This document shows, one piece after another, positions 1 to 38,911 of a stretch of DNA of 40,360 bases. Under the pieces are notes generated by a model that saw only the letters and a list, made by a program, of their open reading frames with translations, made no database searches and was not told the DNA's origin. Source of the DNA: Deltaproteobacteria bacterium. GTDB lineage: Bacteria > Myxococcota_A > UBA9160 > SMWR01. The stretch spans positions 1 through 40,360 of the forward strand of contig JAQBGU010000086.1 of NCBI GenBank assembly GCA_032128375.1, read 5' to 3'. Numbering within the stretch: position 1 is the stretch's first letter; every line of letters starts with the position of its first letter. Made by a program: the position numbers and the translations under genes.

Positions 1-960
1 CGGCGCACGCTGGAGGGCCTCGGTGCGGAGGGAGCCGGCGAACAGCTTCGCGAACTGCTGGGGCAACTCGAAGCGGCGGGGATGCCGCAGGAGCAACTCG
101 ACGCGCTGCGCGGATTGATCGACCGGCTGATGGAGGCGATCCGCAAGAGCGTTCGCAACTTCACGGAACGCGAACTCCAGAAGCAGAACCACGACTACAT
201 GGAGAAGTTCCGGCGCGAGACGCTGCTGGAGAAGAGCTTCTACCACCTCACCGAAGACGAAGTGAGAAAGATGCGCGAAGTCGTCGAGCGACTCGCGCAG
301 AAGATCAAGAATATCCTGACGATCCGACGCAAGCGAATGAAGCGCGGAAAGCTCGACTTGCACCAGACGCTGCGGCGCAACATGTCTCATGGCGGGATCC
401 CGTTCGAACTGGTCTGGAAGCACCGCAAGAAGGATCGGCCGAAGCTCGTGATCTTGTGCGACGTGTCGTCTTCGGTCGCGAATGTGTCGCGCTTCATGCT
501 GCAGTTCTGTTACACGCTACAAGAGGCGTTCACGAAGATTCGGGCCTTCATTTTCGTAGCCGAACTGGGAGAAGTCACCCACTTGTTTCAGGATGGCGAT
601 ATCAGCGAGTCGATCGAAGAAGCCCTGGAGGGCGGAGGTGTAATCAACGTCTATACGCGCTCGAACTTCGGCTACGCGTTCCACCATTTCTGGCAGAATT
701 TCCTGTCCTCGATCGACAACAAGACGACCGTCATCGTGCTCGGCGACGCGCGAAACAACTACAATGACGACAAAGCGTGGTGCTTGCGCGAGATCCACCA
801 GAAGGCCAAGAACGTGGTGTGGCTGAACCCGGAGAGTCCCAGTGCCTGGGGGTTCGGTGACAGTGTGATGGACCGCTACGCGCCGTACACCGACGTGGCC
901 GAAGAGTGTCGCAACCTGCGTCAATTGTCCGCGATGATCGACCGGCTCGTACTGCTGTAA
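1..960 (+). CDS. vWA domain-containing CoxE-like protein, 5' end outside the window
   Basis: Frame is open from position 1. Contains GKLDLHQTLRRN, a MIDAS-like DVSSSV, GDARNNY, WLNPE and WGFGDSVM, all typical of VWA_CoxE proteins. Confidence 0.85.
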   Translation, partial: RRTLEGLGAEGAGEQLRELLGQLEAAGMPQEQLDALRGLIDRLMEAIRKSVRNFTERELQKQNHDYMEKFRRETLLEKSFYHLTEDEVRKMREVVERLAQKIKNILTIRRKRMKRGKLDLHQTLRRNMSHGGIPFELVWKHRKKDRPKLVILCDVSSSVANVSRFMLQFCYTLQEAFTKIRAFIFVAELGEVTHLFQDGDISESIEEALEGGGVINVYTRSNFGYAFHHFWQNFLSSIDNKTTVIVLGDARNNYNDDKAWCLREIHQKAKNVVWLNPESPSAWGFGDSVMDRYAPYTDVAEECRNLRQLSAMIDRLVLL

Positions 961-1010: not shown

Positions 1011-1133
1011 AGCGCGCTCCGAGACACCGCGAGTCCTTCACCGGTTGTTGGCATAGACTAGAATCAAACGCTGTTCTCCGATCGTCCGGGCTGCCCACCC
1101 GGTATTTGCGAACGTCGAGATGTTGAAGGCGCT

Positions 1134-1171
1134 GGCACAACAGGCAAGAACAGGCAAAGACGGGCAAAAAA
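1134..1171. repeat. Degenerate ~10-bp tandem repeat (GGCA-A-rich) x4 at the terminator tail
   Basis: GGCACAACA GGCAAGAACA GGCAAAGACG GGCAAAAAA. Confidence 0.6.
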
Positions 1172-1200
1172 GGAAACGCCCCGCGTGAGCGGGGCGTTTC
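1166..1200 (-). terminator. Rho-independent terminator on the minus strand
   Basis: Perfect 12-bp stem GAAACGCCCCGC (1173-1184) / GCGGGGCGTTTC (1189-1200) with a 4-nt loop. A6 at 1166-1171 reads as a U-tract on the minus strand. Confidence 0.85.
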
Positions 1201-1435
1201 GGAGAGGGGAGAGACGGTGGACGGATGATGGGGGGTGAGAGGTTGGACATTTCGGTGAGAAATGCCAAATCCACCGCCGCTCCATAAACTACTTGACTAA
1301 AATCTCAGCTCTAAAACTCCGTTCCAAAACTCGGTTTTTGACGCCGATCTGGATTTCATCCGCTATTTCATCCTTTGAGGACTCGAAGACTTGAAGAGTT
1401 TTTGAAAGTTTCTGGTGACCTGCGATCAGTCACCT
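1166..1435 (-). ncRNA. Putative ~270-nt small RNA of unknown family
   Basis: Lies between a near-consensus sigma70 promoter (1441-1469, minus) and a minus-strand terminator. Has a 5' hairpin GGTGAC..GTCACC and an internal hairpin at ~1243-1268. No credible long ORF. Confidence 0.6.
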
Positions 1436-1440
1436 CGGGC

Positions 1441-1469
1441 ATTATGGAGTGGCAGCTCTGAATAGTCAA
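1441..1469 (-). promoter_or_regulatory. Sigma70-type promoter on the minus strand
   Basis: TTGACT (1469-1464), 17-bp spacer, CATAAT (1446-1441), with AT-rich sequence upstream (1470-1580). Confidence 0.75.
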
Positions 1470-1583
1470 ACCGTATTTGAGAAAATGATCGAATCTTGAA
1501 CAAATTCTGAAACCACAACAAAGTCATTTAGTTCAATAGTATTTTGAAAGGTAATTCTTGGAATTTCGCCATATTGTGTGATT

Positions 1584-1655: not shown

Positions 1656-3161
1656 GTGAACCCGCCCAGACGTTTTTCGATTCGCACCTACGGGTGCCAG
1701 ATGAACGTTCATGACTCCCAGAAGGTCAGCAACTTGCTGCACCACGACGGTTGGAGCGCGGCGGACTCGGCCGACTCGGCTGACTTGTTGATCATCAATA
1801 CCTGCTCGATTCGCGACAAGGCCGAACATCGGCTCTACAGCGAACTGGGCAAACTTCGGGAGTGGAAGTCCGCCCAGCCCGGTCGGATCATCGGTGTGGC
1901 GGGCTGCGTCGCCCAGCAGCAGGGCGACGCACTGCTGTCGCGATTCTCGCAACTCGACTTCGTTTACGGCACCCACAATCTGCGCCGGGTTCCGTCGATG
2001 GTGGAGGCGGCGCTGGCCGGGCATCGCGGGTCGAAGACCGACGAGGCGAGTACCCATGAGCGATTCGATCTGCCGGCGCCACATCGGGATTTGGCGGCCG
2101 ATCCGGCGGGTCGCGCGTACGTCACCGTGATGGAAGGCTGCGACATGTTCTGCAGCTTCTGCATCGTGCCGTTTACGCGGGGCCGCGAGATCAGCCGTCA
2201 CGCGGATGCCATCGTTGGCGAAGCCCGAGCGCTCGTCGATCGCGGCGTCCGGGAAATCACGTTGCTGGGCCAGACGGTAAACGCCTATGGGCGCCATGCA
2301 CTGAGGCGCGCGCGTGCGACCGGGGGCGTGCTACCCAACGACGTCATCGGCTTTGCTGAACTGCTCGCCGAACTCGACGCGCTCCCGGGGCTTCGGCGGC
2401 TTCGCTACATCAGTCCGCACCCGACCTTTTTCGATCCGACATTGATTCGCGCCCACGGCGACCTCGAATCGCTTTGTCCTCACATTCACCTGCCGGTTCA
2501 GTCAGGTTCCGATCGGATTCTCGAGCGCATGCGCCGCCGCTACACGGCCGGTGACTACCGAAAGCTCGTCGACCAGCTTCGCGACAGCCGTCCCGACCTG
2601 GCAATCACGACCGACCTGATCGTCGGGTTTCCGGGCGAGACCGATGCGGATTTCGAGGACACGCTCGGGCTCGTGCGGGACGTTGCTTTCACGGACAGCT
2701 TCATTTTCAAGTACTCGCCGCGACCCAAGACGGCCGCGGCCCCGATGGACGGAGCTGTCGCCGCCGATGTGGCGCAGCAGCGACTCGAGCAGCTTCAGAA
2801 TCTGCAGCGTTCACTGACTCTGGCCGCCCATCGCCACCGGGTGGGGAGACGCACGCAGGTCCTGGTCGAGGGAGTGAGTCGCCGGGGCGGCAACCAGCGG
2901 TATGGGCGGGATCCGTACAATCGAGTGGTAAATTTTCCGATCCAGGCAGACGATTCGATCGGACGAGCCGAACCGGGCCGATTGCTCGAGGTCGATCTCG
3001 TCGATGCGACGCCGCATTCGTTGATCGGCGAACCCGTCTCGGCTGACGGGCTGGGCACTTCACGGGCTCGGAATCGACAGCCCGTGGCGACAGGAGTGAA
3101 GCTCGGAGCAGGGTCCGCCGATGGTAACCTGCGAGACACCCGAGTCGGCGAATACACGTAG
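1656..3161 (+). CDS. miaB: tRNA-2-methylthio-N6-dimethylallyladenosine synthase MiaB
   Basis: TYGCQMNVHDS, NTCSIRDKAE, GCVAQ, radical-SAM CDMFCSFC, TTDLIVGFPGET and a C-terminal TRAM-like region. GTG at 1656 follows AGGAG. Confidence 0.96.
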   Translation: MNPPRRFSIRTYGCQMNVHDSQKVSNLLHHDGWSAADSADSADLLIINTCSIRDKAEHRLYSELGKLREWKSAQPGRIIGVAGCVAQQQGDALLSRFSQLDFVYGTHNLRRVPSMVEAALAGHRGSKTDEASTHERFDLPAPHRDLAADPAGRAYVTVMEGCDMFCSFCIVPFTRGREISRHADAIVGEARALVDRGVREITLLGQTVNAYGRHALRRARATGGVLPNDVIGFAELLAELDALPGLRRLRYISPHPTFFDPTLIRAHGDLESLCPHIHLPVQSGSDRILERMRRRYTAGDYRKLVDQLRDSRPDLAITTDLIVGFPGETDADFEDTLGLVRDVAFTDSFIFKYSPRPKTAAAPMDGAVAADVAQQRLEQLQNLQRSLTLAAHRHRVGRRTQVLVEGVSRRGGNQRYGRDPYNRVVNFPIQADDSIGRAEPGRLLEVDLVDATPHSLIGEPVSADGLGTSRARNRQPVATGVKLGAGSADGNLRDTRVGEYT

Positions 3162-10042: not shown

Positions 10043-13000
10043 GTGTCGGCTGAACCCTTTGTTCATCTTCACCTGCACTCTCAATATTCGCTGCTCGACG
10101 GTGCGATCAAGATTTCCCCCTTGTTCGAGCGCGCCAAAGAGCTGAACATGCCCGCGGTTGCGCTGACCGACCACGGCAATTTGTTCGGCTCGGTCGAGTT
10201 CTACGTCAAAGCGCGTGAAGCCGGAATCAAGCCGATCATCGGTTGTGAGATGTACATCGCTACCGGCTCGCGGTTTACGAAAGAAAAACGCGCGCACGAT
10301 TCGAGTGGCTACGACGCCATCAACCACCTGATCTTGTTGGCCATGAATGAGACCGGGTACCGAAACCTCGTGTATCTGTCGTCCAAGGCGTACCTGGACG
10401 GATTTTATTACAAGCCGCGCATCGATATGGACCTGCTCCGCGATCACAGCGAGGGGTTGATCGCCACCTCCGGTTGTTTGTCTTCGATGGTCTCGCGCGC
10501 AATCACCGGTGGTCGCACGACCGAAGCCTGGCAGCTGGTCGAAGATTTCGCGGGCGTGTTCAAGGACCGGTATTACCTGGAGCTGCAGCGCCATGGCATC
10601 GGCGACCAGGATGTCGTCAATGCCGAGTTGGTCAAGATGTCGCTGGACATGAACCTCCCGTTGCTCGCCACCAACGATTGTCACTACCTCGGTCACGCGG
10701 ACAACGACCATCACGATGCGCTGCTGTGTATCGGGACGGCGACAAACCTCGACGACCCGAACCGCTTCAAACTCGACGGCAAGGGGTTCTACCTGAAGTC
10801 GGGCGACGAGATGGCGGAGGTGTTTTCGGATCATCCTTCTGCGCTGCGCAATACGCTGGAGTTGGCCGAACGTTGCAATGTCGAACTCGCGGTAGATACA
10901 GGCGAATACCACCTGCCCGATTTTCAGGTTCCAGCTGGGGAAACCAAAGAGCAGGTGCTCGGGCGAGCGGCGTGGAGAGGGCTGAAAGAGCGACTCGGGT
11001 TGCAGCCAGACGAGCCACTCGGAAGCAAGTACGCCGCCTACGAAGAGCGCATGAAGACAGAACTCGGTGTGATCGAACCGATGGGTTTTGCGGGCTACTT
11101 CCTGATCGTCGCCGATTTCATCGATTTCGCGCGCCGGGAAGACATCCCAGTGGGTCCGGGTCGGGGCTCGGCTGCGGGCAGCCTGGTCGCGTACAGCATG
11201 GGTATTACCGGTGTGGATCCAATCGAGTACGACATTATCTTCGAGCGATTTCTCAACCCCGAGCGGATCTCGATGCCAGACGTCGACGTCGACTTCTGCA
11301 TGCGCGGCCGCGACCGGGTAATCCAGTACGTGGCGGAGAAGTACAACGGAGAAGGCGACGATGAACGCCGGGTCGCACAGATCATCACGTTCGGAAAGCT
11401 CCAGGCGCGCGCCGCGATTCGCGATGTGGGTCGCGTGCTCGGCATGGCCTACGGCGACGTCGATCGCATCTCGAAGCTGGTTCCCGACACGCTCGGAATC
11501 AGCTTGGACGAGGCAATCGAACAGAGTGTGGAGATTCGCGCACGCGCCCAGGCGGACGGCCAGGTCGCGCAACTGCTCGAGATCGCGCGTGGGCTCGAGG
11601 GCCTGACCCGGCACGCATCGACCCACGCGGCTGGAGTCGTGGTGTCCGATCGGCCGCTGATCGATTTGGTTCCGCTATACCGCGATCCGAAATCGGGCGA
11701 TGTGGTGACGCAATACGACATGACCGGCGTCGAGCGGCTCGGTTTGATCAAGTTCGACTTTCTCGGCCTCAAGACACTCACGACGATTCACGATGCAGAA
11801 CGCCGGATCCGCGAATCTGGACATCCCGACTTCCGCGTCGATAAGGCGCCACTCGACGATCCGGCGACCTACGAGATGCTCGCCAATGGAGACACCGAAG
11901 CGGTGTTCCAGGTCGAGTCCGCGGGGATGACCGACCTGGTCGTCAAGCTGCGACCGAAGACGTTCAAGGAAGTGATTCCGCTGGTTGCGTTGTATCGACC
12001 CGGACCGCTCGGTTCAGGCATGGTCGACGATTTCGTCAACCGCAGGAACGGCGTCACCCCGGTCGAGTACCTGTGTCCGGAGCTCGAGGAGCTGACGGCC
12101 GAGACGCTGGGCGTGATCGTCTACCAAGACCAGGTGCTGCAGATCGCCAACCGGTTGGCCGGTTACAGCCTGGGCGAAGCCGACCTGCTGCGTCGCGCAA
12201 TGGGCAAAAAGAAGCCTGAGGAGATGGAGCGCCAACGCGCGAAGTTCGTCGCCGGGGCGATCGCGCGAAACATCGACAGAGTCAAGGCTGAACAGGTGTT
12301 CAGCCTGATGGCCGAGTTTGCGGGCTACGGTTTCGCGAAGTCGCATTCGACCGCCTACGCGCTGATCACCTATCAGACCGCTTATCTGAAGGCGAACTTC
12401 CCGCTCGAGTATCTCGCTGCGGTGATGACGACCGAATCGGGTAATCACGACAAACTGTCGCGCTACATCACCCACATTCGCGGACGCGGTATCGAGCTGC
12501 TGCCGCCGGATGTGAACGAATCATCGCGCGACTTCACGGTCGTACCCGGCGGAATCCGCTTCGGCTTCTCGGGGATCAAGAACGTGGGGGAGGGTGCGAT
12601 CGATTTGATCCTGGCGGCGCGCTCCGGCGGCGGGCCCTTCGAAACTCTGTCTGGCTTCTGCGAGCGGGTCGAGGGACGCAAGGTCAACCGGCGCGTGGTG
12701 GAGAGCCTGATCAAATGCGGTGCATTCGATTCGATCCACGGCAACCGGGCAGCGGTCTGGGCTGGACTCGATGCCGCACTCGAATCCGGGGCCGCTACGC
12801 AGCGCGACCGAGAGATTGGCCAGGGGAGTCTTTTCGGAGGTTCGTCTGGGGACGCGCTGCCCGCCGCAGTGCTCCCGGAGACCCCGGCGTGGACCGACCG
12901 CCAGCAACTCGAGTACGAGAAACAGGTGCTGGGCTTCTTTGTGTCCGGACACCCGTTGTCCGCCGTTTCGGACCAGATGTCGAGGTTCGTGGATGTCGTC

Positions 13001-14437: not shown

Positions 14438-14512
14438 TGGCACGTAGCTCAGTGGGAGAGCGCCGCCCTGACACGGCGGAGGTCGGCGGTTCGAAACCGC
14501 CCGTGCCAACCA
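14438..14512 (+). tRNA. tRNA-Val (GAC)
   Basis: Acceptor TGGCACG/CGTGCCA, anticodon arm CCGCC-CTGACAC-GGCGG, GGTTCGAA T-loop, encoded CCA. Confidence 0.97.
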
Positions 14513-24089: not shown

Positions 24090-24166
24090 CGGGCCGTGGC
24101 GCAGCTTGGTAGCGCGCTTGACTGGGGGTCAAGAGGTCGCGAGTTCGAATCTCGCCGGCCCGACCA
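24090..24166 (+). tRNA. tRNA-Pro (GGG)
   Basis: Acceptor CGGGCCG/CGGCCCG, anticodon arm CTTGA-CTGGGGG-TCAAG, GTTCGAAT, encoded CCA. Confidence 0.97.
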
Positions 24167-38835: not shown

Positions 38836-38911
38836 TGGCGCCCCCGGGAAGACTCGAACTTCCGACGCACGGTTTAGGAAACCGACGCTCTATCCTCTGA
38901 GCTACGGGGGC
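38836..38911 (-). tRNA. tRNA-Arg (CCT)
   Basis: Minus strand reads GCCCCCGTAGCTCAGAGGATAGAGCGTCGGTTTCCTAAACCGTGCGTCGGAAGTTCGAGTCTTCCCGGGGGCGCCA. Confidence 0.96.

Follow-up and report, generated by a model that had tools for sequence, protein, structure and literature searches.

Several bacterial small RNAs (sRNAs), among them RoxS/RsaE in Firmicutes and the CcsR-type RNAs in Alphaproteobacteria, carry C-rich unpaired motifs that pair with G-rich Shine-Dalgarno (SD) regions. The short cyanobacterial sRNA Yfr1 has an ultra-conserved unpaired motif, ACUCCUCACAC, located between stems and conserved phylum-wide, and DicF is a patchily distributed, Hfq-associated sRNA. In the present study, we analyzed a stretch of 40,360 nucleotides from a Deltaproteobacteria bacterium (GTDB lineage Myxococcota_A; UBA9160; SMWR01; assembly GCA_032128375.1, contig JAQBGU010000086.1, positions 1 to 40,360), hereafter called the window, and focused on a minus-strand locus between a VWA_CoxE-family gene and a miaB-type gene. 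The locus is best read as the gene of a trans-acting sRNA that belongs to no Rfam family, and we consider it nearly certain that it is a real, structured sRNA gene found class-wide. With a probability of roughly 60%, judged from sequence comparisons, its product is a chaperone-independent mimic of the anti-SD sequence that would occlude the ribosome-binding sites (RBSs) of division genes by pairing with G-runs at ftsA and ftsZ.

Among the described systems, the closest by mechanism appears to be 6C of the Actinobacteria (Mycobacterium, Corynebacterium, and Streptomyces), as a functional analogue and not as a family relative. No match to the 6C covariance model, which we take to be RF01066, was found in positions 900–1700 of the window, either at the gathering score or at E-values up to 10. 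Both RNAs are broadly conserved in a large high-GC clade, and they appear to share unpaired runs of six or more C, G-rich RBS partners, and no involvement of Hfq or ProQ. Their layouts differ, with two C-rich hairpin loops of six or more C each in 6C and a single invariant C6 in an internal loop closed by a stem (P1) in our RNA. In the 6C report, the C-rich loops bind G-rich RBSs (panD, AGGGGGG) without chaperones, the targets include DNA-replication genes, overexpression leads to elongated cells, and ftsZ is explicitly not a target (PMC6486639); in our RNA, which comes from another phylum, ftsA and ftsZ are the top predicted targets.

With regard to predicted target and effect, the closest analogue would be DicF, again not a family relative. 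DicF is reported to be a 53-nt RNA encoded on a defective prophage, and its 3' part pairs with the ftsZ RBS, blocks FtsZ synthesis, and stops division (PMC5069750). In contrast, the RNA described here is a core chromosomal gene with fixed VWA_CoxE–miaB synteny that is single-copy in about 90% of its class, no Hfq gene was detected in the genome of the window, which is 91% complete, and a matching site is present on both ftsA and ftsZ. At the ftsZ RBS, a sequence complement of at least 8 nt predicts pairing in 19 of the 29 genomes compared from the window's order, and no such pairing is predicted in the window's own genome. Rfam gave no DicF match at the sRNA locus at gathering scores or at E-values up to 10. 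RoxS/RsaE and the CcsR-type RNAs gave no Rfam match either, and their architecture, clade, and predicted regulon all differ from those of our RNA. Yfr1 resembles it in the ultra-conserved unpaired motif between stems and in broad conservation within a group; the two differ in structure and targets, and no Rfam match to Yfr1 was found here. We regard our RNA as a new family within a known kind, the C-rich-seed, chaperone-independent base-pairing sRNAs. The core divisome has very few known sRNA regulators, of which DicF is a prophage-borne accessory.

Transcription signals and conserved core

An earlier note on this DNA, made from the sequence alone, had described a near-consensus promoter and a terminator (12-bp stem and T6) on the minus strand, about 270 nt apart and with no gene between them. 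A consensus scan and the list of open reading frames (ORFs) bore this out: the promoter (1469..1441) and the terminator (1200..1166) flank a region containing no ORF of at least 60 aa with a plausible start. The promoter-like site consists of the -35 hexamer TTGACT (1469..1464), a 17-nt spacer, and the -10 hexamer CATAAT (1441..1446), with 10 of 12 consensus matches, and the scan of the first 4 kb of the window returned 2 such sites compared with 0.6 ± 0.6 in shuffles. Together with a conserved upstream AAA..G (AAAtnnnGTTTGAC), the -35 feature covers 1464..1478, and the spacing would place the transcription start at about 1435/1434. The intrinsic terminator (1166..1200) has a 12-bp stem (1200..1173) with 9 G-C pairs and a loop of 4, followed by CTTTTTT, in which the T6 occupies 1171..1166. 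The GC content of the sRNA region is 0.40–0.49 compared with about 0.62 in the surroundings, and the 270-nt RNA folds with a minimum free energy of -90.1 kcal/mol (z = -4.0 versus 200 shuffles).

A DNA search with positions 1150–1500 (minus strand) against 40 relatives gave matches in 36, restricted to a core with 77–96% identity. The matched part was query ~211–312, corresponding to window ~1290..1189, and in two of the 40 relatives the promoter was matched as well, ~33 nt upstream of the core. This conservation pattern suggests that the functional unit is the 3' ~115 nt and not the whole ~270 nt; of the ~270-nt unit proposed earlier, the transcription unit was retained and the functional extent was not. 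A minimal RNA of about 115 nt is also expected because, in the loci with the shortest leaders, transcription must start at the stem itself.

All core features lie on the minus strand, in the order P1 closing stem, P2 hairpin, invariant 25-nt block ending in single-stranded CCAACCUCUCACCCCCCA, and terminator, and the core matched our covariance model R1 at 1198..1287 with 95.7 bits. The 5' strand of P1 (GGAGCGGCGGUGGA) is located at 1270..1283 and its 3' strand (UCCACCGUCUCUCC), assigned from the consensus structure, at 1208..1221. Between them are the P2 hairpin GGCAUUUC-UCACC-GAAAUGUC (1246..1266), supported by alignment and consensus fold, and the block GAAAUGUCCAACCUCUCACCCCCCA (1229..1253), whose alignment columns are invariant. 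The proposed seed is the single-stranded part, about 1245..1222, which is predicted to be unpaired both in the minimum-free-energy fold and in the consensus structure. A C/U-rich linker, CCUCUCC (1201..1207), with semi-conserved C-rich columns, connects P1 to the terminator and is a possible second C-rich site.

Alignment A1 contained 115 distinct sequences. In its consensus, GGAGCGGCGGUGGAU pairs with AUCCACCGCCCUCC to form P1 (13–14 bp), P2 consists of GRCAUUUC, a loop, and GAAAUGUC, and ~22 unpaired bases (CCAACCUCUCACCCCCCAUCAU) follow P2 and precede the C-rich linker and terminator. Changes on both sides were observed in 17 of 33 consensus pairs, including 7 of 10 main-helix pairs of P1, where, for example, U-A was replaced by C-G in 13 sequences and by A-U in 1. 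The terminator stem covaries freely: pairing was kept in all 13 consensus terminator pairs, and both-side changes occurred in 11 of them. Because most A1 loci had been chosen by an exact 26-mer, we built R1, a covariance model of the 90-nt core, and used it to gather copies, including 20 from a second order. In the resulting alignment of 90 distinct sequences, which was fitted to R1 and therefore somewhat favors pairing, 98.5% of cells were paired compared with 45–56% when the partner column was slid by 1–3. Both-side changes were found in 9 of 20 pairs (41 cells) versus 2.8 ± 0.8 in shuffled alignments, with none of 500 shuffles reaching the observed value, and one P1 position occurred as U-A, C-G, and A-U. 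The alignment and covariation analysis of the vWA–miaB intergenic region suggested in the earlier note thus revealed a conserved promoter, terminator, and core, with covarying stems in both core and terminator. Alignment A2 and model R1 would let annotators locate the gene in metagenomes.

The block GAAAUGUCCAACCUCUCACCCCCCA was unchanged in 18 of the 20 second-order copies, which had been gathered by the model and not by an exact word; few sRNAs are so conserved, with 25 nt invariant across two orders. One divergent copy (genome G063) kept AACCUCUCACCCCCC with a compensating change in P2. In another (genome G040, family f9) only the C6 was kept, now in a hairpin loop. In G040 (L154, L242, and L306), the ftsA site is the canonical GGGAGGAG and nrdJ keeps its G6, making this genome a possible natural test case for seed–target co-evolution.

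The P2 loop varied in length and sequence, with indels that were not multiples of 3; the 3' strand of P2 was invariant, and its partner strand varied. Because these indels shift the frame by 1–2 nt and many copies have no ATG at P1, the element is not protein-coding. A small protein could in principle be read from a minus-strand ATG-GAG-CGG... frame or a plus-strand ATG-ATG-GGG... frame, and a 73-codon ATG frame (1285..1064, minus strand) does begin at the start of P1. We consider this scarcely credible: the ATG is replaced in many relatives (CGGAG, CUGGAG, UUGGAG), length differences of ±1 and 2 nt in the P2 loop throw the sequence out of frame, translation would run on through the terminator, and the substitutions track base-pairing and not codons.

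Upstream of the core, the promoter consensus AAAt...GTTTGACA-N16-18-CATAAT was present in 129 of 148 distinct sequences, with CATAAT as the -10 box in 95 and CATACT in 28. No further conserved box, including a transcription-factor box, was found in the 60 nt upstream of the promoter in these 148 sequences. The promoter is of a strong sigma-70 type and, because the 60 nt upstream are otherwise unconserved, looks like a constitutive one.

Distribution, transcription, and relation to known RNA families

The exact 26-mer GAAATGTCCAACCTCTCACCCCCCAT was found in about 130 stored stretches in 185,579 species genomes. The 80 records among the matches listed were all metagenome-assembled or uncultured, most of them labelled Myxococcota or Deltaproteobacteria and a minority otherwise; among these listed matches, the class has no cultured member. 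Within one uncultured class of Myxococcota, R1 detected a single copy in 138 of the 151 genomes searched (99 of the 104 of high quality). Of the 32 second-order genomes among them, 28 matched, and only one genome had two copies. In a phylum-wide sample, R1 matched 26 of 27 class members besides the window's genome and none of 123 genomes from the phylum's other classes.

Short contigs (62–368 nt) from four RNA libraries of four studies covered the core only (1215–1290); they derive from relatives, and their strand and ends are not readable. They weakly suggest that relatives transcribe the core. A search of sequencing runs returned no run with half or more of the stretch, and the small shares found correspond to the relatives' conserved core, uncovered parts of the window being uninformative. 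By sequence, the locus shows the generic features of a trans-acting sRNA: its own promoter, an intrinsic terminator, an intergenic position, and an invariant unpaired seed.

Rfam searches of the whole window at gathering scores returned no family at the sRNA locus, and at E-values up to 10 (900–1700) only weak, terminator-driven matches were obtained (ncS54, 25.9 bits versus a cut-off of 43). A literature search, which did not cover motif collections outside Rfam, found no description of this RNA or of any RNA regulator in the class, in agreement with the proposal that the RNA is an undescribed one of this lineage. The same proposal had set it apart from the signal recognition particle (SRP) RNA and 6S RNA, and neither matched the locus. 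The genome's own SRP RNA (RF00169, 62.1 bits) is located at C68:10441-10539. For 6S RNA, a rod of about 180 nt with a central bubble, there was no RF00013 match at the locus and none was found in the window's own genome, and full-length 6S-like matches were present in 6 of 41 class genomes, on contigs other than that of the sRNA. Since the SRP RNA lies elsewhere in the genome and the 6S-like matches are on other contigs, the sRNA does not stand in for a known housekeeping RNA.

Complementarity at the ftsA and ftsZ start sites

An unusual SD variant, GGGGGG(UGAGAG), is exactly complementary to the C-rich block. The involvement of ftsA and ftsZ emerged only when the positions of near-full 16-mer complements of the seed in 31 genomes were inspected. 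Several of the 16 sites inspected were located on RBSs of genes identified by Pfam, namely ftsZ (two genomes that belong to separate families), ftsA (one further genome), a ParA/MinD-like ATPase, and a class II ribonucleotide reductase. To this extent the earlier idea of a C-rich single strand acting as an anti-SD-type seed gained support: the strand is the most conserved part of the RNA, and its exact complement recurs at the ftsA and ftsZ RBSs of relatives.

We compared the ftsA–ftsZ region of 30 genomes of the window's order, 20 genomes of the second order, and 20 genomes of other classes lacking the RNA. In the region -30..+3 of ftsA, a G-run of at least 6 was found in 23/30, 8/19, and 0/20 genomes, respectively, and a contiguous complement of at least 8 nt to the 19-nt seed in 15/30, 3/19, and 0/20. 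Upstream of ftsZ, the corresponding values were 23/29, 8/17, and 0/18 for the G-run and 19/29, 4/17, and 1/18 for the complement. The outgroup start sites were ordinary GGAGG or GGAAGG. As controls, coding regions gave a complement of at least 8 nt in 0/30, and miaB leaders gave G6 in 1/25 and such a complement in 0/25; the miaB leaders are also unconserved, and miaB was rejected as a target. Typical sites of the window's order are caGGGGGGTGAGAGGcATG (ftsA, G038) and tGGGGGGTGAGAGATG (ftsZ, G028), and the duplexes predicted for G038 have 13 contiguous bp with -31.6 (ftsA) and -31.5 (ftsZ) kcal/mol.

The 11-mer GGGGGTGAGAG occurred at 21 sites in five genomes (3–6 Mb), compared with 5 sites for the same word read backwards. 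The sRNA gene accounts for five of the 21, and ftsA or ftsZ starts for 8 of the other 16; the last eight comprised 4 other gene starts, 1 site upstream of a DnaA/Hda-like ORF, 1 downstream of nrdJ, and 2 inside ORFs. Of 4055 ORFs in the window's own genome, no more than 78 had a G6 located 2–14 nt ahead of an in-frame start codon, and no more than 5 had GGGGGTGA there. These background figures are upper bounds because the gene calls were crude (stop-to-stop ORFs with a GC3 filter), and the list of 78 is incomplete, ftsA itself being missing from it.

The 16S 3' end was the canonical GGAUCACCUCCUUU in all four complete genomes compared from the window's order, which marks the G-run as a variant rather than the usual local form. 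The form GGGGGUGA is a one-base variant of the full SD sequence GGAGGUGA; it pairs with 16S through a G.U wobble and with UCACCCCC of the sRNA perfectly. The sRNA segment UCACCCCCC resembles the 16S anti-SD tail UCACCUCC, and the strand CUCUCACCCCCCA may be viewed as an anti-SD look-alike with altered specificity. The 16S rRNA itself was rejected as a partner, the longest exact complement in four 16S genes being 7 nt.

In the mechanism we propose, the long P1 stem would close a loop containing P2 and ~22 unpaired invariant bases, from which the C-rich strand would pair, without Hfq, with the variant GGGGGG(UGAGAG) that ftsA, ftsZ, and probably nrdJ appear to bear in this class instead of GGAGG(UGA). 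Because this site pairs with 16S only via a wobble and with the sRNA perfectly, the sRNA could compete with the 30S subunit there and occlude the RBSs. The expected outcome would be lower translation of ftsA, ftsZ, and perhaps nrdJ, tuning divisome synthesis. We infer pairing in cells, a repressive effect, and a physiological role on this basis, and the sRNA probably controls cell division. If this is true, a core, vertically inherited sRNA and a co-occurring non-canonical site on both ftsA and ftsZ would represent a clear case of regulator–target co-evolution, and a small SD change (A to G) would bring a gene previously controlled by the ribosome alone under competition from an sRNA. A more far-reaching version, which we regard as speculative and somewhat doubtful, is a private SD channel operating class-wide, in which the re-coded sites of ftsA, ftsZ, and probably the replication-supply gene nrdJ face one constitutive anti-SD-mimic sRNA that couples DNA synthesis to division. 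The seed complement found downstream of nrdJ could then be a built-in decoy.

Several observations weigh against pairing with ftsA and ftsZ as the function of the RNA. The predicted pairing appears weaker in the window's own genome, where ftsZ has GGAGGG in place of a G-run and ftsA offers only 6 G-C pairs (-15 kcal/mol). Seed-complement k-mers near starts were not enriched in that genome (8-mers, 88 versus 89 in the reversed control; 9-mers, 17 versus 23), nor were the near-full 16-mer complements across the 31 genomes (46 non-self sites versus 39 in the control). The G-run motif is weaker in the second order, and the co-occurrence of sRNA and G-runs is essentially one clade-level event, the genomes being kin and not independent. 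In genome G032, a fragmented assembly (820 contigs) that is 99% complete, the ftsA and ftsZ sites are still G-rich, and the search gave no sRNA. Some other reason could underlie the conservation of the G-run on ftsA and ftsZ. One of the RNA-library contigs spans a promoter too, so DNA carry-over is possible. Finally, the core (~75 nt, stems included) is ~90% identical class-wide compared with ~64% for MiaB, a constraint on the whole core that exceeds what a seed alone explains and that hints at a protein partner.

This last point leads to the main rival explanation, that of a ribonucleoprotein RNA whose whole core binds a protein, such as a C-rich-RNA-binding KH-type protein or a ribosome/16S-maturation factor that sees helix 45 and the anti-SD tail. 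The RNA would then sequester or scaffold that protein, and the ftsA/ftsZ match would be secondary or coincidental. It would fit the near-invariance of the ~75 nt, the single-copy, near-universal occurrence as in housekeeping RNAs, the constitutive-looking promoter with its upstream A-tract, the P2 3' strand that never varies though its partner does, and a hairpin-then-single-strand layout that, in our own reading, recalls 16S helix 45 and its tail. However, no candidate protein was found, the conserved neighbors VWA_CoxE and MiaB are not known RNA-binding partners, and a protein-binding role leaves unexplained both the location of half of the non-self exact complements on ftsA and ftsZ starts and the absence of G-run sites from classes without the RNA. 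We consider a ribonucleoprotein role unlikely and prefer the pairing of a chaperone-independent sRNA with the division-gene RBSs.

AU-rich leader, neighboring genes, and further candidate sites

The 5' part of the transcription unit is a lineage-specific, AU-rich leader of about 148 nt (1288..1435, minus strand; GC 0.43) without a match in relatives. It carries the elements read from the sequence by the earlier note, all of which are present: a 5' hairpin GGUGAC/GUCACC (1434..1414), which forms in the minimum-free-energy fold; two copies of GGAUGAAAU, corresponding to ATTTCATCC twice on the plus strand (repeat family D12); and three copies of GAG(A)UUUU, that is, GAGUUUU twice and GAGAUUUU once. 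The C/U-rich tract noted with them is likewise readable in the sequence. The DNA search of 40 relatives revealed no counterpart of the leader hairpin, the repeats, or GAG(A)UUUU, and the leader is single-copy in the window's own genome. A strict promoter pattern was present upstream of 111 of 138 loci, and in these the -10 box and the conserved stem were 7 to 172 nt apart, the window's 157 nt being the second longest.

Six GGA triplets together with the duplicated GGAUGAAAU had raised the idea of a sponge of the CsrA/RsmA type, in which GGA repeats titrate a CsrA-family protein. The count of six was correct and its significance was not upheld, with 3.2 ± 1.6 triplets in mononucleotide shuffles of the 270-nt RNA and six reached in 8% of them. 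Four of the six are in the non-conserved leader, which relatives do not share, and the other two are paired in the P1 5' strand. A search for CsrA (PF02599) gave no match in the window's own genome and did give matches in control genomes; of the two proteins for which the earlier note had suggested a check, CsrA and Hfq, neither was found in this 91%-complete genome. The sponge idea fails because no CsrA was found, the GGA count is at chance, and most of the triplets are in the leader, and we rate it as highly improbable.

The convergent neighbor is a VWA_CoxE-family gene (1..960, plus strand; PF05762, E 6.8e-39) whose 5' end is cut by the contig end. The divergent neighbor is a miaB-type methylthiotransferase gene (1656..3161, plus strand; UPF0004, Radical_SAM, and TRAM), and an AGGAG 6 nt upstream suggests a GTG start at 1656. 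In related loci, the MiaB neighbor was present in 30 of 31 and the VWA_CoxE neighbor in 26 of 31. This conserved position, and a terminator only a few nt away from the VWA_CoxE stop codon in some relatives, would be compatible with a cis-acting element. It might, for example, serve the convergent VWA_CoxE gene as a transcription terminator or insulator, or act on miaB as a divergent-promoter element or an antisense regulator. Such a role is very unlikely: the T-tract follows the hairpin on the minus strand only, the element has its own conserved promoter and a 90-nt structured core far more conserved than a terminator requires, the miaB leaders are neither conserved nor complementary, and the RNA overlaps neither gene.

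Two short tandem arrays were noted on the plus strand. Directly 3' of the VWA_CoxE stop codon, a 15-nt unit (CAACAACATCGACGA) is repeated three times (964–1008), and directly downstream of the sRNA terminator there are tandem 10-nt units (AACAGGCAAG, AACAGGCAAA, then GACGGGCAAA; 1139–1165). The sole Rfam gathering-score matches in the window are three tRNA genes at 14438–14509 (+), 24090–24163 (+), and 38839–38911 (-).

The start regions of nrdJ (class II ribonucleotide reductase) often contain G5–G7, with G6 in about 11 of 29 by eye. A perfect seed complement of 11–14 nt (GGGGGGGTGAGAGG in the window's own genome) is located ~75 nt downstream of nrdJ, at about 12579–12595 (+) of C234 in that genome, at G010:C243:42575-42590, and at G034:C22:54160-54170, with similar flanks in these three genomes of two families. 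This element could act as an sRNA decoy or as a target in the 3' untranslated region (3'-UTR), or it could belong to the leader of the gene that follows. The ORFs with G6 in the window's own genome (at most 78) include lexA-, dnaK-, kdsA-, pyrB-, and nrdJ-like genes, assigned from their N-termini by eye and Pfam-checked for nrdJ only, and these are possible further members of the G-run RBS set.

In the ftsA–ftsZ intergenic regions of relatives (L219–L232), a conserved TGTTACATT-like word (cATGTTACATTc; GAGTTACAGTG in the second order) was repeatedly observed about 30–45 nt upstream of the ftsZ G-run. It looks like the extended -10 element of a dedicated ftsZ promoter that would give a short leader containing the G-run. 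In the window's own genome, GGAUGGGGGG and GGUGAGAGGUUG are located at about 50085–50123 (+) of C65, just upstream of the ATG of an IS21-type transposase gene (identified by N-terminal sequence only), and this site is the best near-start seed match in that genome, at -36.3 kcal/mol.

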